Source of the DNA: a virus | Virus record (IMG/VR): IMGVR_UViG_3300045988_143931 | Coordinates: 97,064 to 161,063 of that record | Direction: 5' to 3' (one strand) | DNA length: 64,000 nucleotides | In this document: positions 11,446 through 47,147 of the stretch, one piece after another | How positions within the stretch are numbered: position 1 is the first letter of the stretch | How the letters are laid out: each line of letters starts with the position of its first letter | The notes under the pieces: model-generated | The model's database searches: none | What the model saw: the letters and a program-made list of their open reading frames with translations, nothing else | Told to the model about the DNA's origin: nothing | Program-made: the position numbers and the translations under genes

Positions 11446-11449
11446 TTAT

Positions 11450-28722: not shown

Positions 28723-30066
28723 ATGGCTTATAGAATTATAGATGTATCAGATAATAATGGACAGCTTGATTGGGATACAATTAAGTCAAGTATTAATGGT
28801 GCAATTATCAGAATTGGGTTTGGTTCAGATTATGAAAATCAGGATGATTCACAGGCTATTAGAAATATGCAGGAATGTGAAAGACTTGGCATCCCTTATG
28901 GTGTGTACATATATTCTTATTGTCTTAATATAGAAGAAACAAGAAGTGAAGCAGCTCATATATTAAGAATAATTCAGGGATTTAATCCTGTTCTTGGTGT
29001 ATGGTTCGACATGGAAGACGCTGATGGGTATAAAAGAAATCATGGTCTTGTTCCCGAACAAAATGGTGAACTTCTCACAGATTTTTGTGTAGATTTCATG
29101 CAGATTGTTAAGGATGCAGGATACAAAACGGGTGTTTACGCAAATTATAGTTATTTTACCAATGTATTAAACGATGGTAAATTAATGTCTTTTGAAGGAT
29201 TTAACAGATGGCTTGCACATTGGGGAATAGATGAACCTTCGATGGATTGTCTGTTGTGGCAATATACATCAGATGGTTATATTGAGGGAATTTCATACTA
29301 TACAGAAACACCTGTATATGATGATAATGGTGTTCCAACAGGTGAGACGACAACAGAACTTCATCATAGATTTGATATGAATTATTATTATGGAGAATTA
29401 CCTAATGTTGAACCAGTTATTCCATCTGAACCAACTGAAGATAACTCGGAATCAGATGATATTGAAACAAAATATCATGTAGGAGATTATGTGTCATATC
29501 ATACAATTTATGCGTCTTCTACTTCCGAAAATGGATTAACACCTTCAATTACAGAAGGCACAATTACTAATATCATTGCATCTGCAAGAAATCCATATCT
29601 TATTAACGATGGTACAGGATGGATTAATGATAATTGTATTGTTGAAAATAATGATAAAAATACTTCTGAACCAGAATCTCCTGATATAAAAGAATCTACA
29701 GGTCTTGCTCATTCTATTGGCGAATATGTCACATATTCAGCACTCTTTGCTTCTTCAGCTTCCGAAGAACCACTTAATCCACTTTATACAGATGGAACTA
29801 TTACAGCTATCGCTGAAGGTGCGAGAAATCCATATCTTATTGAAAATGGTAGGGGTTGGGTAAATGACTCTGTTATTAATGGTAGTTCTACGCCAGAAGA
29901 CAATTATGAAGAACCATCTTATGATACATATGAAGTTGAAAGCGGAGATTGTCTTTCAGCCATTGGTGATAAGCTTGGTGTAGATTGGTATTCTATTGCA
30001 GAAGCTAATGGTATCGGAGAACCATATACTATTTATCCAGGTCAATCTCTTATTATACCTAGATAG
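28723..30066 (+). CDS. Endolysin: GH25 muramidase, two SH3-like repeats and a C-terminal LysM
   Basis: ATG after AAAGGAGG. GH25-like IDVSDNNGQLDWDTIK...GAIIRIGFG...YGVYIYSY. Two internal repeats (YHVGDYVSYHTIYASS... and HSIGEYVTYSALFASS...). LysM is YEVESGDCLSAIGDKLGVDWYSIAEANGI...IYPGQSLIIP. Confidence 0.85.
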   Translation: MAYRIIDVSDNNGQLDWDTIKSSINGAIIRIGFGSDYENQDDSQAIRNMQECERLGIPYGVYIYSYCLNIEETRSEAAHILRIIQGFNPVLGVWFDMEDADGYKRNHGLVPEQNGELLTDFCVDFMQIVKDAGYKTGVYANYSYFTNVLNDGKLMSFEGFNRWLAHWGIDEPSMDCLLWQYTSDGYIEGISYYTETPVYDDNGVPTGETTTELHHRFDMNYYYGELPNVEPVIPSEPTEDNSESDDIETKYHVGDYVSYHTIYASSTSENGLTPSITEGTITNIIASARNPYLINDGTGWINDNCIVENNDKNTSEPESPDIKESTGLAHSIGEYVTYSALFASSASEEPLNPLYTDGTITAIAEGARNPYLIENGRGWVNDSVINGSSTPEDNYEEPSYDTYEVESGDCLSAIGDKLGVDWYSIAEANGIGEPYTIYPGQSLIIPR

Positions 30067-32031: not shown

Positions 32032-32508
32032 ATGGGTTCATTTAGACTAGATCAGAATTTTATAAATAAGATAGAAAAACAATGTCAAGAAAAAGCAAAA
32101 AATTTAGCACATGAGGCTTCTGAAAAATTAACAAATCATTATATTACATTGCTTGATTGGTATTATGCCGATTATCAACCAAAACTGAATAAATACGATG
32201 AACCATATTATATTCGTACCTTCAATTTATATAAATCAGCTCACAAATATTATAAAAATGGAACTGATAGATTTTATGGTGGTGTTCGTATTGATGGTTC
32301 TACTATGAAAGATTATTCAGGAATTAGAAATGCTTCAATATCTGGACAGGATTTATTGAGTACATATATCTATAATCCATCTGGTACATGGCATGGTGGT
32401 GATTGGTATGGTGGTTATGGAGTTACGGCGAGTTTTAACATTTATAACGAAATGCAAAAATATAAAAATAAATTAATAAAAGACATGCAGAATAGATGCA
32501 AAATCTAA
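32032..32508 (+). CDS. Hypothetical protein
   Basis: 158 aa with SD GGAGGTG. Gly/Tyr/Trp-rich C-terminus. Confidence 0.5.
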   Translation: MGSFRLDQNFINKIEKQCQEKAKNLAHEASEKLTNHYITLLDWYYADYQPKLNKYDEPYYIRTFNLYKSAHKYYKNGTDRFYGGVRIDGSTMKDYSGIRNASISGQDLLSTYIYNPSGTWHGGDWYGGYGVTASFNIYNEMQKYKNKLIKDMQNRCKI

Positions 32509-32522
32509 TAAGGAGGAATAAA

Positions 32523-35500
32523 ATGGCAAAAGATGGTATAGTAAGTATTGCTATTGATTATAAAAACGAGCTTAATCAAATGATTCGTGATTATGAATCT
32601 GCTTTAACTAAGATGGCTTCAAATGATAAGTTATCAAAAGGAATGAAAGCACAATTTGATAATACAATTGCTGAGTTAAAGCGTTTTAAGGCAGATATGG
32701 AAAAATCTTTTTCTGATTTAAGTATCGGAAAAGTGGATAAAAACAGTTTTAAAGCTTTTAAACAAACTGTTAATAAGAATTTTGAATCTGTTCGTGCAGA
32801 AATTGATAGATTAGATTTAGCTGTTTCAACTATAAATTCACAGATAAAAATACTTGGAAATGGTGTTGATATAAGTAAGATAAGTAGTCAATTTAAAGAT
32901 TTTCAAGATTATGTACAGAATACAAATAATGCTATTGATACAATGATTAAAAAACTTGATGGTCAAGGCATTTCATTAATATCATTTGATGATAGCGCAA
33001 TAAATCAAGCAAAGTCTCAGATAAAAGAAATTAATAAATTACTTAAAAGTACAGATGAGTTCAGCGATGCAAAAGGCTCAAAATATGAATTATTTGATAC
33101 AGAACAAGCTCAAGCAGAACTAGATGTTCTTGCCAAAGATTTAAAAAATACTCTTGAATTAATTGAAAAATCTGAATCGGAACTTTCAAATTTTGATAAA
33201 AATAGCATCGGTTTTGAAAAAACTATTAACCAAATCAATATATTGAAATTAAAAGCTGCCGATTTACACGATTCTATTCAACAGTTAATAGATATTCCCG
33301 ATAAAACAGGAGAATATACATTTGGTGATTCAATACTTATTTCTGATGACAATGTTGATAAAAAAGTATCTGAATATGAAAAAATTGTAAAAGGAACTTT
33401 AGATGAAATTCGTGAATCTGCCATCAAAACTCGTGAAGAGTTAGATAAAATCGTAACACCTACCTCTTCCAAAACAGCTTCTGCAAAAATATCAGATAAA
33501 CTCAACCCAAATTCAGCAGAATTAGTAACTGGTGTAACAATTGAAACCACTTCATCTGAATTATGGAAAAAGTTATCTCCTATTATTGAAGATTTACAAA
33601 ATATCCTTAATAAAAATCCCGTTGTTGCTCCTGTAAAACTTGTAGTAGCACCAAATGCAGTATCTTCTGAAAAAAATGGTGAAGTTGGCACTATTAGCAA
33701 ATCTTATTCGAAGAAGTATCAAAGAGAATTAGCAAAAACTGGTGAAGATGCAGTTATTGATTTAGAGGGTGTTTATAAGAAAACATTTACTTCTATAATG
33801 GATGAAGCCGTTTCTTATTCTAAGGAAACAATTTCTAAAATTCAAAATATCTTTGAATCTTCTCCTATTAAATTACATTTTGATTTTAATGAAGAAGAAT
33901 TTAAGAAAATATCAGATGCACTTCTCTCTTCTGATTCTGATAAAAAGATTGACATTACAGATCAGATTGCAGAATCAAAAAAGGAGGTTAATGAACTTGC
34001 TGAAAAACTTGCCGAAGTTAATGAATTATTAAATTCAGCAGATTCAAAGGATTTTAGTTTTAAAGGGTTTGATAAATTCGCAGAAGAAATTTCAAAAAGC
34101 CTTGGTCAATTAGTCGAATTACAGTCAATGTTAAAGACATTACAGAATATAGAATCTACTCTCGCTAGAGCATCAGGTGTAAGTAGTGTCACTGATATTG
34201 AAACACAGTGGCAGAATGTATCTAAGTTAATTGAGAATTCTATTAAGTTAGATGGTACTTTTAGAAAAAATGCAAATGTAGATAAACTTGCTTCAGAATA
34301 TAACAAGTATCTCAATATGGGTGGTACTAATGAGTTATCATTTATTGGAAAGGTTGGGAAACTTGAAAATAGCAAGAATATTATGGAAGCTATTTTTTCA
34401 AAAGCTAAAGAGCTAAATTCTCAAAAAGTAGATACATCTTCTGTAGATAAAGCAGATGATGAATTGAAATCAGTATCTTCTACTCTCGATGACGTTATCT
34501 CTCGTCTTGACCATATGATAAATTTGACAAGAGATATTGGTAATACATTTTATAAAATGTTCAAAGACACTTCTGTTAGTGATATAGATAAACAGTGGTC
34601 TTCTATCGAATCTAAGTTCAAATCTATTGCTGATGAATCTGGCAAAATAAATCTCTCTAAACAGAAAAAAGATATTCAAGAATTAGTTGAAATGTACCAA
34701 AAGTATGCAAATACTGGTGGTATGAAAACTCCTTTTGATTTAACAGATAATGCAGAAACCATTAAAAAAATAAATAAAGTCTATGAACAGATGAATTCAA
34801 AAAAAAATAGAACTTCTGTTACGAATGAGTCAAAGAATTTCATTAAAGTAGAGGATTCTGTTAATAGTCTCACTTCTGCTATTAATACAAAGACTGAAGC
34901 TATTAAAACAGAAGCTAATACAATGGAATTAGCTGCAAGAGCTGAAGTCAAATCTATTCAGAAGATTATTGATGCATTAAATCCATTAATTGAGAGAATA
35001 GAAAGTATTCCTGAATTAAAGATACCAAAAGAAGATACTATTCTTCCACATAAGGAATCGAATATTTCATCTGGAAAGAAAGACGCATTTCCCTCTAATG
35101 AAGAAGTAAAACAGAAAGAAAAGTTAGCTGAAGCAACTAGAAAACTTCGTCAAGAAGAAAAACAGTCAAGTCAAGATTCTGTTAATTCTGCGTTAAAAGA
35201 TCAAGTTTCTGCATGGAAACAGATTCAATCTATTCGTGAAAAAATAGCAAAGGTTGATAATCCAGATGTTATTAACCAACTTCAAGAAACTAAAAGATAT
35301 TACCAGCAACAGTATTTAGATGCAACTAAAATTCTAAAATCTAATCAAGATTTATACGATGCACAAGGACAGTTAAATAGGCTTAAACAAATTGAGTTAG
35401 AAACAACTGCAAAAATTAGTCAATATCAAAGTAAAAATACTGAAAGTGTTTCAAAGTATAATCAATCTCTTAAAGATAATGCAACTCAAAAATTATCTAA

Positions 35501-37133
35501 TTATAATAACACTTCTAAATATACTCCTGAATTTATTGAACGAGTTAATTCAAAAATCTCTGAAATTGGACAACTTGATATTACGAAACCAGAAGATGTT
35601 GCTAGATTAAAAACAATTGACAGTGAAGTTCAGAAAATTGTCGATGATTCAAAGTTATTAGAGAATAAACTTGTTAAACAAGATTCTAAGATTGCTGACA
35701 TTATATCACAGATGAAGATTTTTAGGTCACAAAATACTAATATGTCTTCATCACAAAAACAAGCATTAGATGATGTAATTAATTATGCCGAAAAACTTGC
35801 AAATACTGGTAAGGTAACTGCCCAACAAATAGAAAAGATAAAAATATCATTTTCTGGATTAAAAGCTGTAGTTGCATCAAGTGGTAATATGGGTAAAAAC
35901 TTCTTTAGTCAAATCGGTAATCGTCTTACTGATATGAACAGCAAATTTGTTGCTCAGTTTTTGAGTTGGCAAGATTGGATAAGATATATTCAGCAAGGCG
36001 TAAATACTATTCGTGAACTTGATACAGCGATGACTGAAGTTAAAAAAGTATCGGATGCAACAGAAACACAATATTCATCATTTAGAGACACTATTTCTTC
36101 TACTGCAAAAGAGATTGCAACAACAAATAAAGAATTGCTTAATTCTAGTGCAGATTTCTTAAGATTAGGATATAGTCTTGATCAAGCAAGCGATCTTGCT
36201 AAAAACGCCACATTATTTGTTAATGTCGGTGATGGTGTTGATATTACAGAAGCTACCGAAGACATGATTACAGCTATGAAAGCTTTTGATATCCAAGCTG
36301 AAGATAGCATTAAAATTGTTGATGATTATAACCAGATTGGCAACCAGTTTGCGCTCTCTGCTTCTGATATTGGTGAAGCAATGAAACGTTCTGCATCTGC
36401 TCTTGAAACAGGTAATAATAGTTTTGAACAAAGTATCGGTCTTATTACTGCTATGAATGAAATTGTTCAAAATAGTGAAAACACAGGTAACTCTCTTAAG
36501 GTTTTAAGCCTGCGTTTAAGAGGTGCAAAGGCAGAATTAGAGGATATGCAGGAAGACACAGATGGTCTTTGTGATTCAACCTCTAAGCTTCGTGAACAAA
36601 TTAAATCTTTGACTGGTGTTGATATTATGTTAGATGACAATACATTTAAATCAACAACAGACATTATTAAAGAATTAGGTGCTGTTTGGGATAAATTATC
36701 CGATTCTTCACAAGCTGCAACTCTTGAACTTATAGCTGGAAAATCAAGGGCGAATAATGTAGCGGCGTTACTTAAAAACTATCAAAGAATTGATGAAGTT
36801 ATGGAAAGCCTTGGTGATGCCGAGGGTTCAGCAATGCGTGAAAATGAAGCTATAGTTGATTCAATCGATGGACGAATTAAGAAACTATCTGCTTCTATGG
36901 AAGATTTTTGGCAAAAAGCAATAAATACAGATTTTGTAAAAAATATTGTATCATCACTTGATACCATATTAAATCTATTAACAAAAATCATTGATCAGTT
37001 CGGTTTACTTCCAACTATTATTGGTGTTGGTGGTGCTGGTACAGGTATCTTTAAGTTTATTAAGAATTTTGATTGGGTTTTAAAACCTTACACAAAAAAC
37101 TCTCTCCAACAGTTTTTAGTTGGTCAATCATAG
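32523..37133 (+). CDS. Tail tape-measure protein, N-terminal half (candidate exon 1 would end at 37070)
   Basis: ATG at 32523 after TAAGGAGG. About 1100 aa of coiled coil. Then a TP901-type tape-measure core by eye (ATLFVNVGDGVDITEATEDMITAMKAFD...SASDIGEAMKRSASALETGNNSFEQSIGLITAMNEIVQNSENTGNSLKVLSLRLRG). It ends with one hydrophobic segment (LLPTIIGVGGAGTGIF) and a stop at 37131-37133. Confidence 0.85.
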   Translation: MAKDGIVSIAIDYKNELNQMIRDYESALTKMASNDKLSKGMKAQFDNTIAELKRFKADMEKSFSDLSIGKVDKNSFKAFKQTVNKNFESVRAEIDRLDLAVSTINSQIKILGNGVDISKISSQFKDFQDYVQNTNNAIDTMIKKLDGQGISLISFDDSAINQAKSQIKEINKLLKSTDEFSDAKGSKYELFDTEQAQAELDVLAKDLKNTLELIEKSESELSNFDKNSIGFEKTINQINILKLKAADLHDSIQQLIDIPDKTGEYTFGDSILISDDNVDKKVSEYEKIVKGTLDEIRESAIKTREELDKIVTPTSSKTASAKISDKLNPNSAELVTGVTIETTSSELWKKLSPIIEDLQNILNKNPVVAPVKLVVAPNAVSSEKNGEVGTISKSYSKKYQRELAKTGEDAVIDLEGVYKKTFTSIMDEAVSYSKETISKIQNIFESSPIKLHFDFNEEEFKKISDALLSSDSDKKIDITDQIAESKKEVNELAEKLAEVNELLNSADSKDFSFKGFDKFAEEISKSLGQLVELQSMLKTLQNIESTLARASGVSSVTDIETQWQNVSKLIENSIKLDGTFRKNANVDKLASEYNKYLNMGGTNELSFIGKVGKLENSKNIMEAIFSKAKELNSQKVDTSSVDKADDELKSVSSTLDDVISRLDHMINLTRDIGNTFYKMFKDTSVSDIDKQWSSIESKFKSIADESGKINLSKQKKDIQELVEMYQKYANTGGMKTPFDLTDNAETIKKINKVYEQMNSKKNRTSVTNESKNFIKVEDSVNSLTSAINTKTEAIKTEANTMELAARAEVKSIQKIIDALNPLIERIESIPELKIPKEDTILPHKESNISSGKKDAFPSNEEVKQKEKLAEATRKLRQEEKQSSQDSVNSALKDQVSAWKQIQSIREKIAKVDNPDVINQLQETKRYYQQQYLDATKILKSNQDLYDAQGQLNRLKQIELETTAKISQYQSKNTESVSKYNQSLKDNATQKLSNYNNTSKYTPEFIERVNSKISEIGQLDITKPEDVARLKTIDSEVQKIVDDSKLLENKLVKQDSKIADIISQMKIFRSQNTNMSSSQKQALDDVINYAEKLANTGKVTAQQIEKIKISFSGLKAVVASSGNMGKNFFSQIGNRLTDMNSKFVAQFLSWQDWIRYIQQGVNTIRELDTAMTEVKKVSDATETQYSSFRDTISSTAKEIATTNKELLNSSADFLRLGYSLDQASDLAKNATLFVNVGDGVDITEATEDMITAMKAFDIQAEDSIKIVDDYNQIGNQFALSASDIGEAMKRSASALETGNNSFEQSIGLITAMNEIVQNSENTGNSLKVLSLRLRGAKAELEDMQEDTDGLCDSTSKLREQIKSLTGVDIMLDDNTFKSTTDIIKELGAVWDKLSDSSQAATLELIAGKSRANNVAALLKNYQRIDEVMESLGDAEGSAMRENEAIVDSIDGRIKKLSASMEDFWQKAINTDFVKNIVSSLDTILNLLTKIIDQFGLLPTIIGVGGAGTGIFKFIKNFDWVLKPYTKNSLQQFLVGQS
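37102..37122. repeat. Left copy of the 21-nt inverted repeat flanking the insert
   Basis: ctctccaacagtttttagttg is the reverse complement of 42594-42614. The core is 12 perfect positions. Both mismatches in the 9-nt extension are G-U compatible on the plus-strand RNA. Confidence 0.9.
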
Positions 37134-37700
37134 ATAAGAGAATAACATAATGGCGTTGTAATCAAGTCTATGGATACATGGGATTCTTAATAAAAAACTC
37201 TGCAAACACTTTAGCGGAGTATAAACTTTACATGGAGGAATAAATGCTTGAATGCTTGGTAGCTTAACAAACTACCCACGGATCACATAACAAACCATAA
37301 TCCATATAGTTATATTGGATGAGGTTGCGAAAGTAGAAAAAATTGTATATGTGGATATATGAGAATATCAAGGAGACTTGATAGGTGTCTAAGTATCATT
37401 AACAACGGGCAACGAGCAGGACGGTACTCTACATTTTATAATGTTGACCATATATAGAAATGAAAGGTCATATATAGAGAATAACTATATAAGAGAGCAA
37501 TCCCCAACGACATACCCATCCTCTAAGTGAGTCATCGCCTTAAGTATGACATTCGCTTATAATGCATAGTGTACATTGCGATTTCGGAATTCAGTAATGT
37601 ACTTGAGTGTGTGTTTCACTCAACTAGGAAATTCCAAAAATAACTTATAAATAAAATAAATTTTACGGAGGTTTTATTATAGTAAAATATGAAGAAAGAA
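37134..37700 (+). ncRNA. ORF-free structured RNA domain at the 5' end of the insert (possible ribozyme core, class unassigned)
   Basis: No credible ORF on either strand, and richer in G/C than its flanks. Hairpins: 37197-37203/37214-37220; 37366-37372/37377-37383 with a GAGA loop; a GAAA loop at 37329-37332; 37471-37477/37485-37491; 37531-37535/37546-37550; 37603-37609/37617-37623. The helices 37571-37577/37596-37602 and 37586-37591/37630-37635 are compatible with a pseudoknot. Confidence 0.4.
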
Positions 37701-37789
37701 ATTGGTAATTTAATATAAAAAAATAATAAAATAGAGAGTAGGAAAATCTACTCTCTTATGTAAAAATGATAATAATATTCCCACCAGAT

Positions 37790-37876
37790 TCAATAATTAA
37801 AAACATAATTTAATGACAATAAACAACGCTATAAGCGCAATAACAAAAGACGTGCTCATTCTAATATGGCAATTCA
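37790..37876 (-). CDS. Small hydrophobic peptide (28 aa), toxin-like
   Basis: Below the track cut-off. AAGGAGG (37892..37886), 9-nt spacer, ATG at 37876. Translation MNCHIRMSTSFVIALIALFIVIKLCFNY. A minus-strand terminator lies at about 37727-37752. Confidence 0.4.
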
Positions 37877-38231
37877 TAATGTCGTTCCTCCTTTTATTAG
37901 TTTCTTCTGCTTTGTATACAACAGAAACACTGAAGGGGTTTATTGCCCAAGCAATACCTGCTCGGCGACCGACTATATTTTTAATTATATATTATCTGGC
38001 TCCCTTACGCTTACCTTTTGGATAAGTATGCCTCCCAGATATTTTTATTATATCATTATATCATATTTTTACAATTCAGAACATAGGTTTTGAGGAAAAT
38101 GTATAGTATTAAAGAGTCTTTTTATGCATATTGACATGATCATAAGATTAGTGATTAATAATAAAATAGGACTGTCGTGAAACAGCCCCTACTATTGAAG
38201 TAAAGGAGAATAAATATATAAATGAAGAACA

Positions 38232-38417
38232 TTAATGATGAAGATTGATATTGATATCCTTAGAAGTCATTTCTGCTAAACTTCCAGTTTTGGAATCACT
38301 GTAGTCTTTGCAGATTTTAGCGATGTAACATTTGCCAACGATTGAAGCTATGTGGCATATTACATAACATATTCCAAGAATTACTGAACCGATTATCTCG
38401 GCATATAATATATTCAA
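38232..38417 (-). CDS. Small membrane protein (61 aa)
   Basis: TTG start 10 nt after GGGAGGTG. The hydrophobic N-terminal half is ILYAEIIGSVILGICYVICHIASIVG. Confidence 0.5.
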   Translation of the reverse strand: MNILYAEIIGSVILGICYVICHIASIVGKCYIAKICKDYSDSKTGSLAEMTSKDININLHH

Positions 38418-38628
38418 TATGTATTTTCACCTCCCTTCTTAGTAAGAATATAAATAAGTAGGGAATATTCTTTTAGCCCAGAATGGGCAGATATTTATTC
38501 CGACTGCCATAAAAATAGACATTGGGACAACCTTCGGTTATAGAGTGTTATGGCACACATCTATGTTGTTTCTCCAATGTCTATATTTTACCATTGTATT
38601 TAATTCAATACAATCCAGAACAATAGTT

Positions 38629-38805
38629 CTAATTTTGTAATTGTGAGTTAATATACTCTTCTCTTTCGGATTCCGTCATTGAGAAGAATTTTTCAAATTC
38701 TATATCAAGATTTTTGCATTCAATGTTGCATGTTCTGCATATACATTTAATATAATGCGTGTATGTGATTCTATGACAATTAGGACAGTAATGAATTTTT
38801 AACAT
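38629..38805 (-). CDS. Zn-ribbon protein (58 aa)
   Basis: ATG at 38805 after AGAGG (the tracked ORF extends to 38880). CPNC...CRTC Cys pairs. Confidence 0.5.
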   Translation of the reverse strand: MLKIHYCPNCHRITYTHYIKCICRTCNIECKNLDIEFEKFFSMTESEREEYINSQLQN

Positions 38806-38901
38806 ATGTAACCTCTGTTTCTCATTGATATAATTGCAAAAATATTTTATATGTGATATGTTATATGAAAATATTAACATATATGGGAGGTATAATAAAG
38901 T

Positions 38902-39876
38902 ATGGATTATACATCTAAAACTCGCTCTTTACAATCACTTGTAAAGGATATGAATAAGGGGACAATTAATCTTTCTCATAAATTACAGCGACCAGAGGGA
39001 CAATGGAATCGTAAGCAAAAATCAGATTTGATTGATTCACTACTTCGCCATTATCCAATTAATCCAACATATGCAATTGTAGAAGAAGACGGAACTCTAT
39101 CGGTTATTGACGGTGTTCAGCGTTTATCTACTATAAGAGATTATATTGAGAATATATTTGCTTTATCAAAGGATATGAATGGTATTATTATTAACGGTGA
39201 AGAAAAGAATTTATCAGGTTTAAAATTTGACAAACTTGATGAAGATGTTAAATCTGAAATTCTTAATGCTGAATTGCAGATTTATAGAATGACCGATTGT
39301 ACAGAAACAGATATCCGTGAACTTTTCCGAAGACAGAATGCAGGGAAACCTCTGTCAAATAAGCTTTTGCGTGTGGTGCATGAATCAGATGAATTTAGTG
39401 AAGTGGTCTACTCTCTCGCCAATCATCCATTCATGGATAAACTTATGTCACCTACACAAAGAAAGAATGGTACAGATAGAGATATAATTATCCAGGCAAT
39501 GATGCTTATTTCTTCTAATCAGGAACAGGAATTTACATCTTTTAGAACAAAAGATATTGATACTTATGTAACTGATTATGCGGATCAGTATCTTGGTAGA
39601 GCTGATACATTAAAAGAGGCTATGGATAGATTCGATGAATCATTTGATGAAATTAAAATTCCTGTTACCTCTATCCCACAAATATTATATTCAGGTTATC
39701 GTATTATTAAAGATAAGAAGTCGTTTACAAAACTTGTTGATAAGGTTGCCGACTTCTGTATTAATTATGATTCTAATAGTGAGTATAAGCAATTTGTTCA
39801 GAATGGAACAGGCTCTAAAGAAAATGTTCGAGGAAGATTTGAATATTGGCGAGCAATTGTTAAGACATTACAGTAA
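38902..39876 (+). CDS. DUF262 (ParB/GmrSD N-terminal-like) domain protein
   Basis: 324 aa with SD GGGAGG. Motifs in order: HKLQRPEGQWN, VIDGVQRLSTI (the DGQQR-type motif), FRRQNAGKPLS. No DUF1524/HNH-type C-terminal nuclease domain was seen. Confidence 0.7.
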   Translation: MDYTSKTRSLQSLVKDMNKGTINLSHKLQRPEGQWNRKQKSDLIDSLLRHYPINPTYAIVEEDGTLSVIDGVQRLSTIRDYIENIFALSKDMNGIIINGEEKNLSGLKFDKLDEDVKSEILNAELQIYRMTDCTETDIRELFRRQNAGKPLSNKLLRVVHESDEFSEVVYSLANHPFMDKLMSPTQRKNGTDRDIIIQAMMLISSNQEQEFTSFRTKDIDTYVTDYADQYLGRADTLKEAMDRFDESFDEIKIPVTSIPQILYSGYRIIKDKKSFTKLVDKVADFCINYDSNSEYKQFVQNGTGSKENVRGRFEYWRAIVKTLQ

Positions 39877-39884
39877 TGTTTCAG

Positions 39885-39915
39885 AGAGTAGTCATTAATT
39901 GGCTACTCTTTTATT
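39885..39915 (+). terminator. Rho-independent terminator
   Basis: 9-bp stem agagtagtc/ggctactct followed by TTTATT. Confidence 0.8.
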
Positions 39916-40015
39916 AAAATAAACAAATGTTCTGATGGAAATATTTGTAAATATATTTTATAATCATAATAGAAATAAACTTAAGAAGTTTATTATTATG
40001 TTATTGGAGAAAAAT

Positions 40016-40327
40016 ATGAGGAACAAATTTTTCATTGACAAAAAATTAGTGAAGAAAATTGAAAAAGACTTAAAGAAGCGATGTTCTATCGAAGAAGATT
40101 TAAATAAAGATTTAGAACTTTTTAATGAAGAAATAGATGATAAAACTGTTCTTTCTATATTTAAATATATTGAAGATTATGGGAATAAGAAGCAAAAAGG
40201 TTATTTAGTAGAAATACAAAGTAGATATGAGAATTCTACATTACTCATTGATGATACTTTAAAACTTGCTGATTGGTATGATAAAATGTGTAATTTCTAT
40301 AATAATATCGATGGAATGGATTTATAA
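40016..40327 (+). CDS. Hypothetical protein
   Basis: ATG at 40016 after TTGGAGAAAAAT (tracked from 39935). 103 aa. No motif recognised. Confidence 0.45.
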   Translation: MRNKFFIDKKLVKKIEKDLKKRCSIEEDLNKDLELFNEEIDDKTVLSIFKYIEDYGNKKQKGYLVEIQSRYENSTLLIDDTLKLADWYDKMCNFYNNIDGMDL

Positions 40328-40332
40328 GAAAA

Positions 40333-40548
40333 ATGAATAAATATATAGTGTTAAGTAAAAAGAAAAATCTTAGTCAATTATATTGTATTATTAAAGATTT
40401 AAAGTTGAAGAATACATTGAAAAATAAAAGAACTTCGATATGGGAAAATAATGATTTGGAAATTAGTATTGACAAATACATAATTAGAATAACAATTTAT
40501 TCAAATGAAGATGTTCAATATTATACTAATTATATTTTACAAAGGTGA
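40333..40548 (+). CDS. Hypothetical protein
   Basis: 71-aa ORF with a weak SD. Confidence 0.35.
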   Translation: MNKYIVLSKKKNLSQLYCIIKDLKLKNTLKNKRTSIWENNDLEISIDKYIIRITIYSNEDVQYYTNYILQR

Positions 40549-40552
40549 TAAT

Positions 40553-41029
40553 ATGGAAAAAAAAGAAAGATTAAAGATGATTAATTTTTTAAGCGACATT
40601 TTAAGTAAATCAAATATATCAGATTTTAAACATATTGAGTTAGAAAATGATAAAGATGTTAATTTTTTAATTAGTCCAAAAATTAAATACAAAAACAAAG
40701 AGGAAAATATACAACTACAATTAATGATTTATTGTTCTGACAATGAAAGCTTAAGTATATATTGTCCGTTATTGTATAAATTGTTAGATAAAGATAGCTT
40801 GGTATACACTCTATCATCAATTAATGAAGTTAATAGCAAAGTTGCTATTGGTAAAATTTATATGAATAAAGATAATAATTCTGTGATAAGTTATATTTAT
40901 AGAGCTTTATTTAATAATATTTATGAAGAATTAACACCTCAATTAATTAATGACTATATAGATGCATTTCTATTAACTTCTATTGAGTTTTATTCGAAAA
41001 TGAAAGAGGTTGTTGATGAAGACAAATAA
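40553..41029 (+). CDS. Hypothetical protein (possibly a YbjN-like fold, weak)
   Basis: ATG at 40553 after AAAGGTG (tracked from 40505). 158 aa. Confidence 0.4.
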   Translation: MEKKERLKMINFLSDILSKSNISDFKHIELENDKDVNFLISPKIKYKNKEENIQLQLMIYCSDNESLSIYCPLLYKLLDKDSLVYTLSSINEVNSKVAIGKIYMNKDNNSVISYIYRALFNNIYEELTPQLINDYIDAFLLTSIEFYSKMKEVVDEDK

Positions 41030-41432
41030 TAATGGTCATTTTATTTTATTGTTAGGAGTTTTTATTTTTGCGGCTTTTATTCGCACAATATTGAATTCTA
41101 GTAAAAATATAGTTAGTATAATTGCAAGTATTAACATTGTATCGTTATGGTTTGTGATATATTTAATTCTTGAAAATGCTCAAAACAAGTTTTATATTAG
41201 GCTTAAAAATAATACTGTTTTAGGAAGGCAAACAAAAATAAAAAAGAATAATTATTTCAAAAAAGTTATAAAATGGATAGAAATTGTTATATTTATTTTA
41301 GGCATTTCTTATGTAATATTTTTTGCGAATAGTATTATAAACGATATTATTGGATCTTTCTCATTATTTTTATCTATTGAAGAAGAATATATTTATAATT
41401 TAGTTCAAGATATTTTTTATAAAAAGAAATAA
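41016..41432 (+). CDS. Multi-pass membrane protein
   Basis: ATG at 41016 after AAGAGG. Three or four hydrophobic segments. Confidence 0.5.
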   Translation: MKTNNNGHFILLLGVFIFAAFIRTILNSSKNIVSIIASINIVSLWFVIYLILENAQNKFYIRLKNNTVLGRQTKIKKNNYFKKVIKWIEIVIFILGISYVIFFANSIINDIIGSFSLFLSIEEEYIYNLVQDIFYKKK

Positions 41433-41433
41433 T

Positions 41434-41465
41434 AAAAAGAGCAGGACTAATCTCCTGCTCTTTTA
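41434..41465. terminator. Bidirectional terminator between convergent cargo genes
   Basis: 9-bp stem agagcagga/tcctgctct, with an A-tract on one side and a T-tract on the other. Confidence 0.8.
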
Positions 41466-41491
41466 TATTACTCTTCTTTTCTTCTATCCTA

Positions 41492-41611
41492 TCAGTCTTT
41501 ATCTTCAGATCCGCTACATTCGTCACTGTGTTCACAGAATTCACAATAACATTCATCTGTATAATCACCTGTTTGCCAACATAGTTCTGTTGGAGACATA
41601 TCATTGTTCAT
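41492..41611 (-). CDS. Small acidic Cys-rich peptide (39 aa)
   Basis: Below the track cut-off. GAGGAG, 10-nt spacer, ATG at 41611. Translation MNNDMSPTELCWQTGDYTDECYCEFCEHSDECSGSEDKD. Confidence 0.4.
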   Translation of the reverse strand: MNNDMSPTELCWQTGDYTDECYCEFCEHSDECSGSEDKD

Positions 41612-41693
41612 AAACTCACCACTCCTCTGCTTAAAAATATCTTAATTATACACTTGTTATTTTATCAAATTATTATATGTGAGGTGAATCAAT

Positions 41694-41822
41694 ATGAAAT
41701 TATCTATAAAGATTAAAATAAATGAAATACGAGAACTGAAACCAATTGTTGAGTATATAAAGAACTTGGAGAATAATTCTCCCGAACTCAATACAGAGAT
41801 AGAAATTGAGCTGGGAGAATAA
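41694..41822 (+). CDS. Small hypothetical protein (42 aa)
   Basis: GAGGTG SD, then ATG at 41694. Translation MKLSIKIKINEIRELKPIVEYIKNLENNSPELNTEIEIELGE. Confidence 0.35.
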   Translation: MKLSIKIKINEIRELKPIVEYIKNLENNSPELNTEIEIELGE

Positions 41823-41825
41823 TTA

Positions 41826-42053
41826 TTAGTTTTCTTTTATAACTTCAATAATTGAAATTTCTGACTTAGAGATGGTAAATGCATTAGTGTCAGAATATAA
41901 ATGTAAATCATATCCAACTGAATAATGATGATTAAATATTTCTTCATTTTCAAGATTGTATTCTAATACGCCTTTATGACCATAATAGACCTTATTGATA
42001 TGGTTGTATTCTTGCACTTTACCATCTTTGTTTTTAATTTTAAATGTATACAT
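41826..42053 (-). CDS. Hypothetical protein
   Basis: 75 aa with SD GAGGAGG. Confidence 0.5.
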   Translation of the reverse strand: MYTFKIKNKDGKVQEYNHINKVYYGHKGVLEYNLENEEIFNHHYSVGYDLHLYSDTNAFTISKSEISIIEVIKEN

Positions 42054-42131
42054 AGTATCCTCCTCTGTAATTTGATATTACTATCATACTACATTAAGGA
42101 ATATTTTACCATTCGGAACATTAGTTCTTAC

Positions 42132-42542
42132 TTAAAAATCACTCTTACAATTATTACAGTGCCATTGTTTTTTTACCTTTTGTGAGAATATACCGAACAT
42201 CGCTACTGATGTTGCTTTTGATACTCCTGATATTTTCTTACAATTTGTTGAATTACAATATGGACAATGAACTTTATTTAACCAATCTTGTGCTTGGGCG
42301 TTAGCTTGGGCGATTTGCTGTGGGGTAAGGTCGGGAATCGCAGGATTGTTTTCTTTAGTTCCATATTGTTTACTTAATTCACACCATAGTTGTTGAGCAT
42401 CGTCATCTGAACAATTTGTTAATTCTTGAATAAACTTTATTCCTTTTAATGTTTGATTTTGAGCAATTATCACCAACATTTTTGTTGCTTCCGTGCTTTC
42501 AATTTGATTATCAAAATAATATTTTGCTTCTTCGTAATTCAT
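42132..42542 (-). CDS. Hypothetical protein with a C-terminal Zn ribbon
   Basis: ATG at 42542 after AAGGGGGG (tracked to 42596). CPYC...CNNC. Confidence 0.55.
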   Translation of the reverse strand: MNYEEAKYYFDNQIESTEATKMLVIIAQNQTLKGIKFIQELTNCSDDDAQQLWCELSKQYGTKENNPAIPDLTPQQIAQANAQAQDWLNKVHCPYCNSTNCKKISGVSKATSVAMFGIFSQKVKKQWHCNNCKSDF

Positions 42543-42567
42543 AATAACCCCCCTTTTTTTTGTTTTT

Positions 42568-42596
42568 ATTATATCAGACAACTCATAAATACGCAA
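42568..42596 (-). promoter_or_regulatory. Promoter of gene 42132..42542, abutting the right inverted repeat
   Basis: On the minus strand: TTGCGT (42596..42591), 17-bp spacer, extended -10 TGaTATAAT (42576..42568). Confidence 0.5.
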
Positions 42597-42614
42597 TTAA
42601 AGACTGTTGGAGAG
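42594..42614. repeat. Right copy of the 21-nt inverted repeat
   Basis: caattaaagactgttggagag. See 37102-37122. Confidence 0.9.
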
Positions 42615-45600
42615 TCTGTTAGCGTTATATCAAAACTTGAAGAAGCTTTAAAAGAAATAGACAATATTGGTACTGTTGGTATGCCTAGAATGGCACAGGT
42701 AAACAGATTGTTAAAAGAAACTTTTGCTGACTGTTCCATTGAAGCTGCAAAAATGGCGATTTCGCAAAGTACATTAAATAAAGAGCAAATAGAATTGATT
42801 TTATCCTCAAAAGGTCTTACAGGTAATATTCTTGAAACCACTACGGCTGAACTTGCCAACGCAACTGCTACTAATGCCGTAGCTGTTGCTGAAGGTACTG
42901 CTACTACTGCCACTGTTGGATTTGGTACGGCTATTAAAGGATTGGGAGCATCGTTAAAATCGCTCGTTGCCGCTCATCCTGTATTACTTGCTATAACGGC
43001 TGCTATAGGTGCAATTTATGCTACCGTAAAAATCGTTGACGCTTGTACGACAAGTTTTGATGAATTAAAAGATAAAATATCCAACTTAAAACAAGATGTT
43101 TCTGATTCTGAATCAACTTTAAAAGATTATAAAACTCAGCTTGATGAAATAAATCAGAAAATAACTGAAATTAACAATCAAGATTCTTTAAGTTTTACAG
43201 ACGAACAAGAGTTAGAAAATCTCAAAAATCAGAAAACTGAGCTGGAAAATATGTATAATATTGAAAAAGCTCGTCATGATTTAAAGCAAAAAGAATTAGA
43301 AGATACTGCTAATAAATATTTTAATAAGAAAATAACACCTTCCTTATCTAAAGAATATAAGGATTATTCGGTTGTAGACGAAGATGGATTTGAAAAAAAA
43401 CTTACAAAGCTTGATATAATGAATCTAGCCAAAGAAAGAATGCTATTAAATCAATCTAGGTTAGATACATTAAATGAAGAATATAATAATAAATCAAACC
43501 CTTCCAATAAAGAAACTAAAGAGTATGAGAAAAAGAAGGCACAACTTGAAAAAACTCGTAATGATGCAAAAAAAACTGCATTGGACATCCAAGAGGAAGC
43601 AAAAGAACAAGTTGAAGGCTTAGATTCAACTTCTGACACCTATAAAAAAGTTACAGAAGCTTCGCAGGAATTATCTGATGCGTTGGCAAGACTGAATAAT
43701 GACTGGGATAGTCTATCTGATAAAGGTAAACGAGAGGATTTATCTTCTAAAATATCAAAAGAAGCTAAAAACTTAAGTTCGGATGATATGAAAAATATTG
43801 ACAATTATCTTTCAACCTTATCTGATGATGATTTAAACATTCTTGCTAATGTGACTTTCGATGAGAATACTACAGTTGAAAGTCTTAAAGAAGTTATTAA
43901 AGCCGCTCAAGAAGAAGCTAACAAAAGTTCGGTAGATTTACCTGTCAAAACATTTGATCCAACTTCTCTTCTTGAGGAATCAGATGATAAGACTAAGACA
44001 GCAACTTTAGCAGACCTTCAGTCAGAAGCAGATTTGTTATCTTCTATTCAGAAAGAAATGTCTGAAACAGGTCGTATCGGTGTCGATTCAATGCAGAAAA
44101 TTATCAAGCAGTATCCAGAAGCAAAAGACGCTTTAGGTCAGTATATGCTTGGTATTATTTCGCAGGAAGAGTTATTTGACCAGTTACAGGGCGTGTATGA
44201 GAATGATAAAAATGCCTATATTTACTCACTTGTTGAGAAGTCTAAGTATGATGGTACATTCTATTCTAACCTTGTAAACACAAATAATGATTTCTTTGCA
44301 GGCTTATCTGAAGCGTATGGCGAAGATTTCAGTAACTATAAAAATCTCGCACAAGCTAAACAGAAGATTGATGACCAGCTTGTTAAATATCTTTCTGGTA
44401 TGTGGGGTAAATTCTATCAGACTACTATAGATACAACAACAGGGTTAATGTCTTTAACTTCAAAAGCTACTTCTATGGATGATGATATGGATTTAGGTTT
44501 ATATTTGTATGATAATGGTGCAGATGAAGAGACAAATGCCATTGCTGAAATGCAGAAAATGGTTGATGATTATAATGCTTTACAGAATATATCATTTGAT
44601 TCTGCTTTTAATGGTATTGATTTATCATGGCAAGGTTTTTCAGGTGACGATTCATCATCTTCCAACGATTCATCCTCTTCACAAACAGAACAAGATGTGG
44701 ACTGGATTGAACGCTTAATCAATAAGATTTCTACAGCATATTCACGTCTAAAGAATGTTGTATCAGATACAACAACTACATGGCTCAATCGTAATAACGC
44801 ATTATCAGATTCTATGAGTACACTTGCAGATGAGATAAATGCACAGTCAGATGCTTACGAATACTATATGAATGCATTTAATTCTTATGGTCTTGATGAC
44901 TATTATAAGAATCAGATTGCAGATGGTTCTATAAGCATTGATGTTATTTATGATGATGACTTGAAGAATGCTATATCTGATTGTCAGGATTTCTATGATA
45001 AAGCACAGGATGCTAAAACTGCTGTTCAGGAACTTAATATTGAATTAAAAGGGCTTGCTAAGAGTAGGTTTGATAATGTAGCTTCTGAATTTGAAAAGAA
45101 GATTTCATATTTCAAAGATTATTCAGACCAGCTTCAGAAGGAAATGGATATTATCACCACTAAGGGTTGGTTCTCTTCTACTTCCATTAACGAAGGTATG
45201 AAAAAGGTTGAACAGGATAATCTTGACAGACTTAAACAGGAAAGAAATGCTTTAATGAATGCCTTAAATTCCGCTGTTGGTTCTGGTAAAATAGAGAAAT
45301 ACAGCGAAGATTGGTATGACATGCAGAGTTCTATTGACTCTGTTACATCTTCTATTCTTGATGCTGAGAAGGCTCTTATTGAGTATGATAACGCTATCAG
45401 GCAGATTAAGTGGGATGCATTTGATAGAACAAGAGATGATATAGAGAATCTTATTAGTGAAACTGAATTTCTTGTTGAATTATTAAAAGATAAAGGTATT
45501 ACTGACGACAATGGCAATACTACTGCTGAAGGTAAAGCTGCACAGGCGTTACTTGTTCAGAAGTATCAATTATATCTAAATCAGGCTCAAAAATATAAAG

Positions 45601-47147
45601 ATGAAATTCTTAAAATTGATGAGGAACTTGTTAACAATCCTTATGATAAGGAATTATTGGATAGAAAACAAGACCTTATTGATAAACAGCAAGAAGCTAT
45701 CAAATCAAGTATTTCTGAAAAAGATGCTATTAAGGATCTGGTCAACGATGGATATAATGATTTATTGAATGCTTTACAAAAAGTTATTGACAAACAAAAA
45801 GAGAGTCTATCTGCCGAGAAGTCACTGCATGATTATCAACGAACAGTTGCTGAACAAACTGCTACTATTGCTCAGTTACAGAAACGATTATTGGCTTTAC
45901 AGGGCGATAATTCTGAAAGTGGTCAATCTCAAAAACAGTCTATAAGTTCAGAGCTTAAAGATGCACAAGACCAGTTAGAAGAAACAGAGTATGAACAGTA
46001 CATTGAAGATCAGACTAAGATGCTCGATGACTTAGCAAGTCAAGCTGAAGAATGGATAAATACTCGTTTAGATAACCTCGATGGTCTTATTCAGCAGATT
46101 ATTGATGATAGTAATACTCATAGCGGAGAAATTAAAGATACTATCACTAATACTGCTAATGAATTTGGTATAAATCTTAGCGATGGTATGAAGAGTATTT
46201 GGGAGACAAATACAAATAATATTAATAATAATATTACTTCTGTATTTAATGATTTCGGAACAAAATTTGATAATACAATGACAACACTTAATAATGTTGT
46301 TAGTGGTATTGAGAGCAAAGTTCAGGAAATGCTTAGTCTTGCTAATGAAGAAGCTGCACAAAGACAAGCTGAGTTAGAAGAACAGAGAAGACAACAAGAA
46401 GCTGCTGAATCTAACTCATCCTCATCAGATGATTACAGTGAACCTGATTATGATTGGGATGATATTGGCGGTGGAGATAGTGATTCTTCTAGTGGTGGAG
46501 ATGGCGTTGATTGGATATACTCTCCTGACTATTTCCCAAAAGATCAATTGAATGTAAATACTAGTATAGTAGACAGGTTGAAAAGTCTTGATTATGATTC
46601 TTCCTTTGGTGCTAGAGCTATGTATTTTGAACAAATGGGACTCGGTAATGACTACACGGGTAGTTATGATGATAATGTCGCAATGCTCGAATGGATGAAA
46701 TCAAGAGGTATCGGAGGATATCGTAAAGGTACTAAATCAGCAACAAAAGGGCTTCATATTTATGGTGAAGATAATCCAGGCTCAGAGGTACTTGTTACTA
46801 AATATGGAGTACTTCGTCAGTTTGATTCAGGTGATACAGTATTTAACAAAGACCAAGTTGAAAAACTTTGGAATCTTTCTAAGGGTATCACTACACCAAA
46901 CATGTATATGGATAACTTAGGTGCTAAGTTGCCTGATATTACCCCAGTTTCAACAAACAAATCAGTTGATATTGGTGGCATTAATGTTAATGTTGATAAG
47001 ATTGTCACAGACAATCCAGAAGACTTTACACGACAGCTTACTAACGAACTGGCAGGAAACTCAAAGATACAGAAAATCCTTGGAGAGATTAATTCTAATC
47101 AGCTCTTAGGTCGAAATTCATTATCCACTCGTAGATATATGAAATAA
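42603..47147 (+). CDS. Tail tape-measure protein, C-terminal half (candidate exon 2), with no start codon or SD of its own
   Basis: Begins TVGESVSVISKLEE. Gly/Ala-rich hydrophobic segments (AVAVAEGTATTATVGFGTAIKGLG, AAHPVLLAITAAIGAIYATV). More than 1000 aa of coiled coil and a globular C-terminus. The first in-frame ATG (42681) has no SD. The tracked 5' extension (42453-42602) is antisense to gene 42132..42542. Confidence 0.75.
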   Translation, partial: TVGESVSVISKLEEALKEIDNIGTVGMPRMAQVNRLLKETFADCSIEAAKMAISQSTLNKEQIELILSSKGLTGNILETTTAELANATATNAVAVAEGTATTATVGFGTAIKGLGASLKSLVAAHPVLLAITAAIGAIYATVKIVDACTTSFDELKDKISNLKQDVSDSESTLKDYKTQLDEINQKITEINNQDSLSFTDEQELENLKNQKTELENMYNIEKARHDLKQKELEDTANKYFNKKITPSLSKEYKDYSVVDEDGFEKKLTKLDIMNLAKERMLLNQSRLDTLNEEYNNKSNPSNKETKEYEKKKAQLEKTRNDAKKTALDIQEEAKEQVEGLDSTSDTYKKVTEASQELSDALARLNNDWDSLSDKGKREDLSSKISKEAKNLSSDDMKNIDNYLSTLSDDDLNILANVTFDENTTVESLKEVIKAAQEEANKSSVDLPVKTFDPTSLLEESDDKTKTATLADLQSEADLLSSIQKEMSETGRIGVDSMQKIIKQYPEAKDALGQYMLGIISQEELFDQLQGVYENDKNAYIYSLVEKSKYDGTFYSNLVNTNNDFFAGLSEAYGEDFSNYKNLAQAKQKIDDQLVKYLSGMWGKFYQTTIDTTTGLMSLTSKATSMDDDMDLGLYLYDNGADEETNAIAEMQKMVDDYNALQNISFDSAFNGIDLSWQGFSGDDSSSSNDSSSSQTEQDVDWIERLINKISTAYSRLKNVVSDTTTTWLNRNNALSDSMSTLADEINAQSDAYEYYMNAFNSYGLDDYYKNQIADGSISIDVIYDDDLKNAISDCQDFYDKAQDAKTAVQELNIELKGLAKSRFDNVASEFEKKISYFKDYSDQLQKEMDIITTKGWFSSTSINEGMKKVEQDNLDRLKQERNALMNALNSAVGSGKIEKYSEDWYDMQSSIDSVTSSILDAEKALIEYDNAIRQIKWDAFDRTRDDIENLISETEFLVELLKDKGITDDNGNTTAEGKAAQALLVQKYQLYLNQAQKYKDEILKIDEELVNNPYDKELLDRKQDLIDKQQEAIKSSISEKDAIKDLVNDGYNDLLNALQKVIDKQKESLSAEKSLHDYQRTVAEQTATIAQLQKRLLALQGDNSESGQSQKQSISSELKDAQDQLEETEYEQYIEDQTKMLDDLASQAEEWINTRLDNLDGLIQQIIDDSNTHSGEIKDTITNTANEFGINLSDGMKSIWETNTNNINNNITSVFNDFGTKFDNTMTTLNNVVSGIESKVQEMLSLANEEAAQRQAELEEQRRQQEAAESNSSSSDDYSEPDYDWDDIGGGDSDSSSGGDGVDWIYSPDYFPKDQLNVNTSIVDRLKSLDYDSSFGARAMYFEQMGLGNDYTGSYDDNVAMLEWMKSRGIGGYRKGTKSATKGLHIYGEDNPGSEVLVTKYGVLRQFDSGDTVFNKDQVEKLWNLSKGITTPNMYMDNLGAKLPDITPVSTNKSVDIGGINVNVDKIVTDNPEDFTRQLTNELAGNSKIQKILGEINSNQLLGRNSLSTRRYMK

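Follow-up and report, generated by a model that had tools for sequence, protein, structure and literature searches.

How can a phage tape-measure protein (TMP) be made from a gene whose two halves are separated by 5.5 kb of other genes? This question is raised by the window analysed here, a 64,000-nt stretch of the IMG/VR virus record IMGVR_UViG_3300045988_143931 (positions 97,064 to 161,063 of that record; all coordinates below are those of the window). The window is AT-rich (~31% G+C), and its gene order is that of a single long plus-strand structural operon in which the remainder of the structural genes is intact. Based on sequence comparison, we conclude that positions 37071-42593 are probably an IStron-like, group-I-type intron that is spliced in cis from the late TMP transcript.

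The upstream open reading frame (ORF; 32496..37133, 1545 aa, with ATG 32523 as an alternative start) has a PhageMin_Tail domain (Pfam PF10145) at residues 1199-1415 and covers positions 152-953 of phrog_4211, a tape-measure profile of 2625 positions. The frame that is open from 42603 covers positions 961-1521 of the same profile. Because both match phrog_4211 in series, the two halves are consecutive parts of one kind of protein, colinear with uninterrupted TMPs. This bears out an earlier note on the same DNA, made from the letters alone, which had described a TMP gene split by an insert. The PhageMin_Tail core, the Gly/Ala hydrophobic segments and the position after the tail chaperone genes are those of a TP901-type tape measure. 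Exon 1 (32496..37070, plus strand) would contribute 1525 codons that end in ...GIFKFIKNF, and exon 2 (42594..47147, plus strand, matching phrog_4211 and without a start of its own) 1517 codons that begin with QLKTVGES..., giving a predicted spliced TMP of 3042 aa. The predicted exon junction joins TTTATTAAGAATTTT to CAATTAAAGACTGTTGGAGAG in RNA or DNA, and FIKNF to QLKTVGES in the peptide (...FKFIKNFQLKTVGE). In more distant relatives we identified uninterrupted TMP ORFs of 2161-2314 aa, and one distant unbroken TMP (P0051) aligns without a gap across this junction.

The comparison set comprised about 60 loci of the same arrangement from IMG/VR and metagenome contigs, from which 17 distinct copies were used for the RNA alignment, 18 distinct 3' junctions for the boundary and 17 distinct inserts for the cargo. 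A near-identical TMP locus (L264) lies on a 2.65-Mb bacterial contig (GCA_041326975.1, JBGLCA010000002.1 808088-822435), which means that the phage can exist as a prophage within a bacterial chromosome. One could thus imagine that a mobile element disrupted the TMP gene of a decaying prophage and that the halves no longer form a functional protein. We find this scarcely credible, as the same split arrangement occurs in >60 contigs of 80-196 kb, both halves remain intact through 30-99% divergence with pN/pS values of 0.1-0.35, and the structural operon is intact.

The conserved N-half protein ends at FIKNF; beyond this point relatives diverge or change frame. The last 20 codons of the upstream ORF (37071..37133, plus strand, stop TAG 37131-37133) would be a read-through tail of intron sequence. 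They are unconserved as protein: indels in A-runs shift the frame, and one lineage stops after a single codon. At the other side of the insert, exon 2 of the window has no start codon with a Shine-Dalgarno (SD) sequence ahead of ATG 42681, as had been noticed before. Among relatives, the first in-frame ATG, GTG or TTG of exon 2, also without an SD sequence, occurs at codon 63 (L007, L039), 65 (L015), 97 (L070, L072) or 118 (L008). In at least five distinct loci a TAG immediately precedes exon 2, and exon-2 codons 9-60 are under purifying selection (pN/pS 0.10-0.35 in close pairs). Thus, independent initiation of exon 2 is not credible as a general mechanism.

The same observations count against the possibility that two polypeptides are made from two genes with an accessory island between them. 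The 5' RNA of the insert would then be the end of an insertion sequence (IS), a regulatory RNA or a recombination linker, and the C-terminal half would start unconventionally, either by reinitiation coupled to a long helix (H2, described below) or at an ATG or ANG codon at 42591-42593. Indeed, the codon before the CAA that opens exon 2 is ATG in some loci (it is ACG, AAG or AGG in others), and gene callers annotate proteins that begin with MQLKTVGES... (P0001, P0042). In addition, H2 lies 9 nt before the upstream stop, as read from the sequence, so translation of the upstream ORF would unwind it. This possibility must nevertheless accommodate the TAG codons, the lack of an SD sequence, the selection on codons that precede the first canonical start by up to 63-118 codons, and an upstream stop whose position varies between loci. 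It also leaves unexplained the covariation in the first guide helix and the exact match between the shared exon flank and one arm of that helix. We consider it quite improbable.

The inserts between the TMP halves are 2230-5838 nt long, and their length modulo 3 is 0, 1 or 2 across relatives. Therefore, no frame-dependent translational mechanism can be general, and the equal frame of the two halves in the window is accidental. The earlier note had stressed the in-frame join; removal of either 37071..42602 or 37071..42593 does preserve the frame, but the shared frame is not a general property of the family. An intein or split intein was rejected given stops in all frames, genes on both strands and the varying length modulo 3. 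Ribosomal bypassing was also considered and rejected.

The cargo is flanked by a 21-bp inverted repeat, and this could suggest that the insert is removed from the DNA, by site-specific excision or inversion, before late expression. The window cargo is without a recognised recombinase or transposase, and the insert is kept in all assembled viral contigs. When worked through on the sequence, inverted repeats invert rather than excise, and inversion leaves the halves unfused. Furthermore, the left arm of the repeat is invariant, whereas the right arm drifts at third codon positions. Removal at the DNA level is accordingly an alternative to which we give very little credence, and we return to removal at the RNA level.

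The insert boundaries that best fit the sequence comparisons are 37071-42593 (5523 nt, 3 x 1841). G42593 (plus strand), the candidate omega-G, is invariant in the 18 distinct junctions and would place the 3' splice site between 42593 and 42594. The two bases before it vary (AC, AU, AA, AG or UA), so that the codon is ACG, AUG (ATG in DNA), AAG, AGG or TAG. Downstream of the invariant G the junctions read [C/G]AA[C/T]TNAA… (TTGGAGAG); the sequence upstream depends on the last cargo gene, and the relatives' junctions revealed no conserved intron structure at the 3' end beyond the terminal G. Position 42594 is the joint start of protein conservation (Q/E-L-K-T-V-G-E-S), of the open frame and of helix H2. 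The earlier note had placed the 3' splice site after G42602 and had H2 spanning that base. Because G42602 is A, T or G in relatives while conservation, frame and H2 all begin at 42594, we moved the boundary 9 nt upstream, and H2 pairs with exon 2 only, from its first nucleotide. Within the cargo, at 41584-41597, a G followed by TTCTGTTGGAGAC matches 10 nt of the exon-2 partner of the guide at 37102-37122. Many relatives conserve this repeat, at a distance of about 0.6-2 kb upstream of the actual junction. It may act as a decoy or serve as an alternative site of 3' splicing; if spliced there, the N-half would gain a 44-codon tail.

Two guide helices link the exons to the beginning of the insert. 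The first, H1, corresponds to P1 of group I introns. Its 5' strand is the last 15 nt of exon 1 (UUUAUUAAGAAUUUU, 37056..37070, plus strand), with the predicted 5' splice site after U37070, and its 3' strand is an internal guide (37180..37194, plus strand). The U37070-G37180 wobble closes the 15-bp helix, which agrees with the 5'-exon U and the U-G pair expected of P1. The duplex has a predicted energy of -12.0 kcal/mol, compared with -4.9 +/- 1.4 for dinucleotide shuffles of the target (1 of 500 as good). H1 is recovered by RNAalifold and kept in the 17 aligned sequences (97.3% paired). It also covaries: at 37067-37183 most copies have U-A, but L218 and L253 have C-G, and at 37068-37182 the copies have U-G, U-A or C-G. 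The H1 arm is the sole exon-1 sequence that accompanies the element in every context. The exon sequence common to three unrelated exon contexts (…GIFK-FIKNF, …GVTK-FIKNF and …LTA-FIKNF) starts exactly at the sequence given above as the left side of the exon junction, which is the 15-nt H1 arm.

The second helix, H2, is of the P10 type. Its left arm (37102..37122, plus strand) can pair with exon-2 nucleotides 1-21 (CAAUUAAAGACUGUUGGAGAG, 42594..42614, plus strand), and the two arms form a 21-nt inverted repeat with 19/21 matches in which both mismatches are G-U pairs on the plus strand. The predicted duplex energy is -31.2 kcal/mol vs -10.1 +/- 1.9 for dinucleotide shuffles, and none of the 500 shuffles was as good. 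Both helices, including the plus-strand sense of the H2 wobbles, had been proposed from the letters alone, and both withstand these comparisons. With an invariant terminal G at 42593 and pairing from exon-2 nucleotide 1, H2 has the configuration of a group I 3' splice site. The left arm of H2 can instead form a local hairpin (37106-10/37119-23). A further alignment helix, hairpin c (37129..37172, plus strand), is flanked by the helix ends U37070-G37180 and C42594-G37122. As read from the coordinates, the P10 guide precedes hairpin c and the P1 guide follows it, an arrangement that would bring both splice sites together at one three-way junction.

Two copies of the element, L218 (OJME01000007.1) and L252 (ERZ1673693 NODE-44), have other exon-1 ends and other distal halves of the exon-2 guide (CTCGCCAAAG... 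and CGCTTATATG...). The exon-2 starts predicted from these guides are near CCAACTAAAAACTTTGGCGAG (L218) and CCAACTAAAAACATATAAGCG (L252). For L218, the predicted exon-2 sequence had no match in viral contigs; exon 2 of both copies lies outside the fetched DNA.

The region after the upstream stop is structured and free of genes, as the earlier note had described: 37134-37800 is ORF-free, and 37040-37670 folds better than shuffles (z = -3.15). The 17 copies support a structure of 165 pairs, in which 98.3% of cells are paired. In this structure 29 pairs are changed on both sides, compared with 5.3 +/- 2.0 in column shuffles (0/500 as many) and 4-6 when the pairing is slid by 1-3 columns. Hairpin a (37075..37088, plus strand), directly after the 5' splice site, covaries; the copies preserve it although its strands differ completely in sequence (GGGUU/AACCU, GCUC/GAGC and AAUCUU/AAGAUU). 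With hairpin a, the exon-2 guide and hairpin c inside it, the loop of P1 is elaborate.

P1 is followed by a ribozyme-like core (37197..37570, plus strand, from RNAalifold and pair counts). RNAalifold places P2 at 37197-37220 and a long-range P3 (37228-39 with 37519-30) that encloses P4/P5-like and P6-like domains. The P4-like helix (37245-57 with 37407-18) is flanked by a P-like AAAUGCUUGAAUG and a Q-like AACGAGCAGG element; these calls use P/Q/R/S consensus motifs that we take to be those of the classical literature, and literature string searches for the P/Q/R/S consensus sequences returned primer uses only. The P6-like helix (37419-30 with 37492-37503) is followed by an invariant single strand resembling the R element (CCAACGACAUACCC, 37504-17). 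Pair counts define P8 (37531-50), which exists in three covarying versions, and motif comparison an S-like element (AAUGCAUAGUGU, 37561-72), where the invariant strand is CUUAUAAUGCAUAGU. A second S-like candidate, AAGUAUGAC at 37543-50, was rejected, as the three covarying versions assign it to the local P8 hairpin. An 80-nt module of two hairpins (37572..37651; hairpins 37571-37602 and 37603-23), defined by the alignment and resembling P9/P9.1, completes the RNA. All of these features are on the plus strand.

The resulting helix order, P1-P2-P3-P4/5-P6-[R]-P3'-P8-[S]-P9, fits that of a group I intron, and P3, P4, P6, P8 and P9 are each either supported by covariation or invariant. The invariant blocks at 37492-37524 and 37556-37570 sit at the places expected for R (J6/7-P7) and S (J8/7-P7'). 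The R-like strand resembles R of the T4 td intron (CUAACGACUAUCCC); S of td is GAUAUAGUC, with the P9 hairpin directly after it. The td sequence used was confirmed to be 100% identical to T4 records. In the hairpin at 37603-37623 the loop GUGUG is invariant while the stem covaries, and the loop is complementary to CAUAC in the R-like strand (37511-15). This may reflect a tertiary pairing or an alternative P7, judging from complementarity. A group II intron was rejected: the insert starts with GAUUGG rather than GUGYG, and is without a reverse transcriptase, a conserved 3' structure or an Rfam match.

Several results weigh against a group-I-type intron spliced in cis. A canonical P7 with a G-C guanosine-binding pair was not found. 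Duplex searches gave 4-bp options only, the best being an invariant 4 bp with a bulge; in the td-like register G37509 faces G37571. Rfam 15 gave no group I or group II match, neither for the 690-nt ribozyme and the 6-kb region (E <= 1 and <= 10) nor for the window at the gathering threshold; only tRNAs and noise were reported. The guides, 15 bp in P1 and 21 bp in P10, are far above the usual length, which is 4-6 bp in group I introns (PMC4227781). P10 shows no compensatory change and is reduced to 8+8 bp in L035, L054 and L255. Convergent transcription units in the cargo, together with a bidirectional terminator (41435-41464), would be an obstacle to an unbroken 5.5-kb precursor. Finally, an intron-less allele with these exact flanks was not found; a gapped exon-flank pattern gave 109 unrelated matches in viral contigs. 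The Rfam result weighs little, because another intron at the same TMP site that has clear R and S elements (the L025 type, below) is missed by Rfam too.

The missing guanosine-binding pair and the long guides would also suit an RNA that is a distinct derivative or new sub-class, one that ligates the exons by means of its guides across, or independently of, a separately transcribed cargo, and serves phages as a general platform that conceals exchangeable defence and accessory genes in an essential late gene. We regard this as unlikely. Splicing in trans, which we judge improbable, would have exon 1 and the ribozyme on one transcript and exon 2 on a second that begins inside the cargo and is captured by the 21-nt guide; this second RNA would need only the terminal G and P10. 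In its favour, a continuous precursor would be interrupted by cargo promoters, the bidirectional terminator and antisense units, nothing conserved is needed at the 3' end except G42593, and P10 is unusually long and strong. Engineered trans-splicing ribozymes have such guide pairing as well. On the other hand, we identified no plus-strand promoter just upstream of 42594, natural bacterial group I introns and IStrons are known to splice in cis, and terminators are often read through in phage late transcription.

Overall, the earlier note's central idea of an IStron-like element that is excised as RNA finds strong support in the comparisons, given the mobile and covarying 5' RNA, the covariation in P1, an exon 2 that is translated yet has no start, and relatives that carry TnpB; the 3' splice site in the note was off by 9 nt. 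We infer the catalysis and group I chemistry, splicing in cis rather than in trans, and the mode of mobility. In the cis-splicing model, the late transcript would read through the whole insert, and the first ~500-580 nt would fold into the ribozyme. The last 15 nt of exon 1 and the internal guide (37180-37194) would form P1, with U37070-G37180 at the cleavage site, and the first 21 nt of exon 2 would pair with 37102-37122 in an unusually long P10. Hairpin c, between the guides, would bring both splice sites to one junction. After 5' cleavage, the 3'-OH of exon 1 would attack the bond after G42593, joining FIKNF to QLKTVGES. The segment from the ribozyme to G42593 would be dispensable for splicing and could have become an accessory island that is swapped by recombination, its genes using their own promoters, several on the opposite strand. 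The ribozyme on the left, and C0 (the last cargo gene) with the exon-2 flank on the right, could act as homology arms, allowing spread among divergent TMP alleles and exchange of cargo.

The distribution of the 5' RNA points to a horizontally moving element, because this RNA is far more conserved than the flanking N-half proteins: window 37053-37651 is 94-99% identical in loci whose N-half proteins are 31-40% identical. Its most distant copies are 79-84% identical. For the region, the ribozyme and the putative terminase, INPHARED searches (megablast, distant blastn, tblastn) yielded no relatives, with distant TMPs as the only matches, and in GTDB genomes the core 18-mer of the RNA gave chance matches only.

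The cargo (37652..42592, both strands) is a mosaic island of accessory genes with their own promoters and terminators, and it varies between loci (1.6-5.2 kb across relatives). In the window it is 4.9 kb long and holds about 9-10 plausible genes, rather than the roughly 12 previously counted, in three transcription units on both strands. Its left end holds two or three small genes on the minus strand, whose terminators are at 37733-56 and 38168-89; an 83-aa zinc-ribbon protein is encoded at 38629..38880 (minus strand; ORF and Pfam). A plus-strand unit (38902-41432) opens with a gene for a 324-aa DUF262/GmrSD_N protein (38902..39876; Pfam E = 1.8e-15) that matches NsnA in PADLOC over nearly its full length (E = 2.2e-37). 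The unit continues with four ORFs without assigned function (130, 71, 174 and 140 aa; 39935..41432, plus strand) and closes at the bidirectional terminator mentioned above. Also present are two minus-strand genes seen in the insert comparison: a 75-aa gene (41826..42053, cluster C3) common to several relatives, and C0 (42132..42545, 137 aa, with a C-terminal zinc ribbon), which closes a minus-strand unit and lies at the 3' end of 16 of the 17 distinct inserts. None of the 455 homologues of C0 is named; one is in a metagenome-assembled genome of Lachnospira pectinoschiza. A sigma-70-like promoter of C0 (TTGCGT, 17 nt, TATAAT; 42560-42598, minus strand) overlaps the 3' splice site and the first exon-2 codon, so transcription of C0 is antisense to the intron's 3' end.

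Scans of the window cargo with Pfam, PADLOC and NCBIfam recognised no endonuclease (homing endonucleases included), reverse transcriptase, recombinase or transposase, and the same scans of the window, together with tblastn using TnpB, were negative for TnpA and TnpB. Cargo of relatives includes genes for PemK/MazF-like toxins beside a helix-turn-helix (HTH) gene, and a Bro-N/ANT antirepressor. L264 encodes, on the TMP strand and starting 38 nt after the ribozyme module, a 369-aa TnpB (IS605 OrfB/Cas12f-like), and the same TnpB is encoded in L062 and L215. In L264 the TnpB gene is followed by an omega-RNA-like tail of 110 nt, an HTH gene and a gene for a 407-aa TIR-domain protein. The cargo of L025 (7894-7994) and L033 (6688-6788) includes two tandem copies of the Rfam '6A RNA' (RF02925, 51-56 bits, above the gathering score).

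In the known IStrons, a group I ribozyme (IA2) forms the 5' end and an IS the 3' end (PMC4227781; bioRxiv 10.1101/2023.11.20.567912). The family described here is related to them, because TnpB follows the ribozyme in L264, L062 and L215 as in the IStron layout; without tnpA and tnpB, the window copy is not an IStron by definition. As in IStrons (CdISt1 of Clostridioides difficile, BcISt1 and the CboIStrons of C. botulinum, with IS200/IS605 or IS607), the ribozyme is confined to the 5' end and separated by a long non-ribozyme segment from a distant 3' splice site, the last base of the 5' exon is a U in a T-rich site and that of the intron a G, and the hosts are Clostridia and their phages. The T-rich 5' flank (AATTT, AACTT or AATCT, then T) resembles that of group A IStrons. 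Unlike IStrons, in which the 3' part is an IS of ~1.5 kb, the window has a multi-gene mosaic there. Element 3' ends are ..ACG, AAG, TAG, AGG or ATG rather than the TCAG or CGG of IStron termini, the P1 and P10 of the element have the lengths given above, and no conserved stem encloses the cargo. We did not identify left-end and right-end hairpins of the IStron kind in the element.

Introns that are spliced from tail and capsid genes of phages have been described, and one of them has an ORF in antisense (LittleE; PMC3706429). Like phage group I introns (T4 td, nrdB and nrdD, SPO1, Twort, staphylococcal, lactococcal and Cluster J mycobacteriophage introns), the element interrupts an essential conserved gene, has U at -1, a terminal G and R- and S-like motifs that resemble those of td, and shares with them the possibility of ORFs on the opposite strand. 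It differs from them in a cargo that is 10-20 times larger and multi-gene with no recognised homing endonuclease, in much longer guide helices and in a G-binding pair that we could not identify. The variable cargo with its own promoters and terminators between conserved flanks is also reminiscent of the moron, defence and toxin-antitoxin hot spots of phages. Unlike those, the element sits inside coding sequence, and expression of the host gene would depend on removal of RNA. Thus, introns in phage structural genes and IStrons are already known; new are the multi-gene, bidirectional and defence-like cargo, the very long guide helices, the lack of a recognisable mobility enzyme in most copies and an RNA that is matched by no current model.

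Should the predicted splicing prove real, no group-I-type intron described from a bacterial virus would be larger or richer in genes, and the intron would carry defence, toxin-antitoxin, TIR and TnpB genes, acting both as their vehicle and as a recombination hot spot. Its cost would be masked, since the RNA would excise itself from an essential structural gene. The element connects IStrons with phage accessory-gene islands, and suggests a route in which the IS part was replaced or joined by other cargo. Natural exon recognition by long guides may be of interest for engineered cis- and trans-splicing ribozymes. Annotation is affected as well: these gut Clostridia phages have their TMP genes called as 2-5 separate ORFs, so that tail length and gene counts are mis-inferred.

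Other putative introns were found in the same gene. L025, L026, L027, L032 and L033 have a different ribozyme type at the same TMP site (e.g., L025 5086-5601), with clear group I R and S elements (UCAACGACUGG and AAGUACAGUCUGG); it shares with the window RNA only the 80-nt two-hairpin module, at ~95% identity. Further ribozyme types occupy the TMP site after …KNVG and after …GKGKS. The TMP site is a general intron hot spot, for which several intron lineages compete. A second intron-like insert of ~2.2 kb lies inside the TMP N-half of L012 (3626-5776), and also occurs in L017, L018 and L039. In L012 it comprises ~550 nt of ORF-free structured RNA with R UCAACGAUCA and S AAGACAUGAUCU, followed by a 523-aa ORF with many zinc-finger repeats and weak matches to CapR and DUF4379. 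P0006 suggests a third insertion site, in the TMP C-half (VKIVDA/LATYL...). In the Enterocloster phage CB457P1 (INPHARED OP172753.1, 25508-27717) the TMP match is in two pieces over three hypothetical proteins, and the TMP of this cultured phage may also be interrupted.

Most of the large structural proteins of the window have no Pfam match. A class-V aminotransferase (E = 2e-57) is encoded among the structural genes. The phage also encodes an endolysin with GH25 and LysM domains, the anaerobic ribonucleotide reductase NrdD and four tRNAs, and its host is likely an anaerobic Gram-positive gut bacterium. The aminotransferase, endolysin, NrdD and tRNA genes lie within 26174-27280, 28681-30066, 61533-63728 (minus strand) and 3497-11537.

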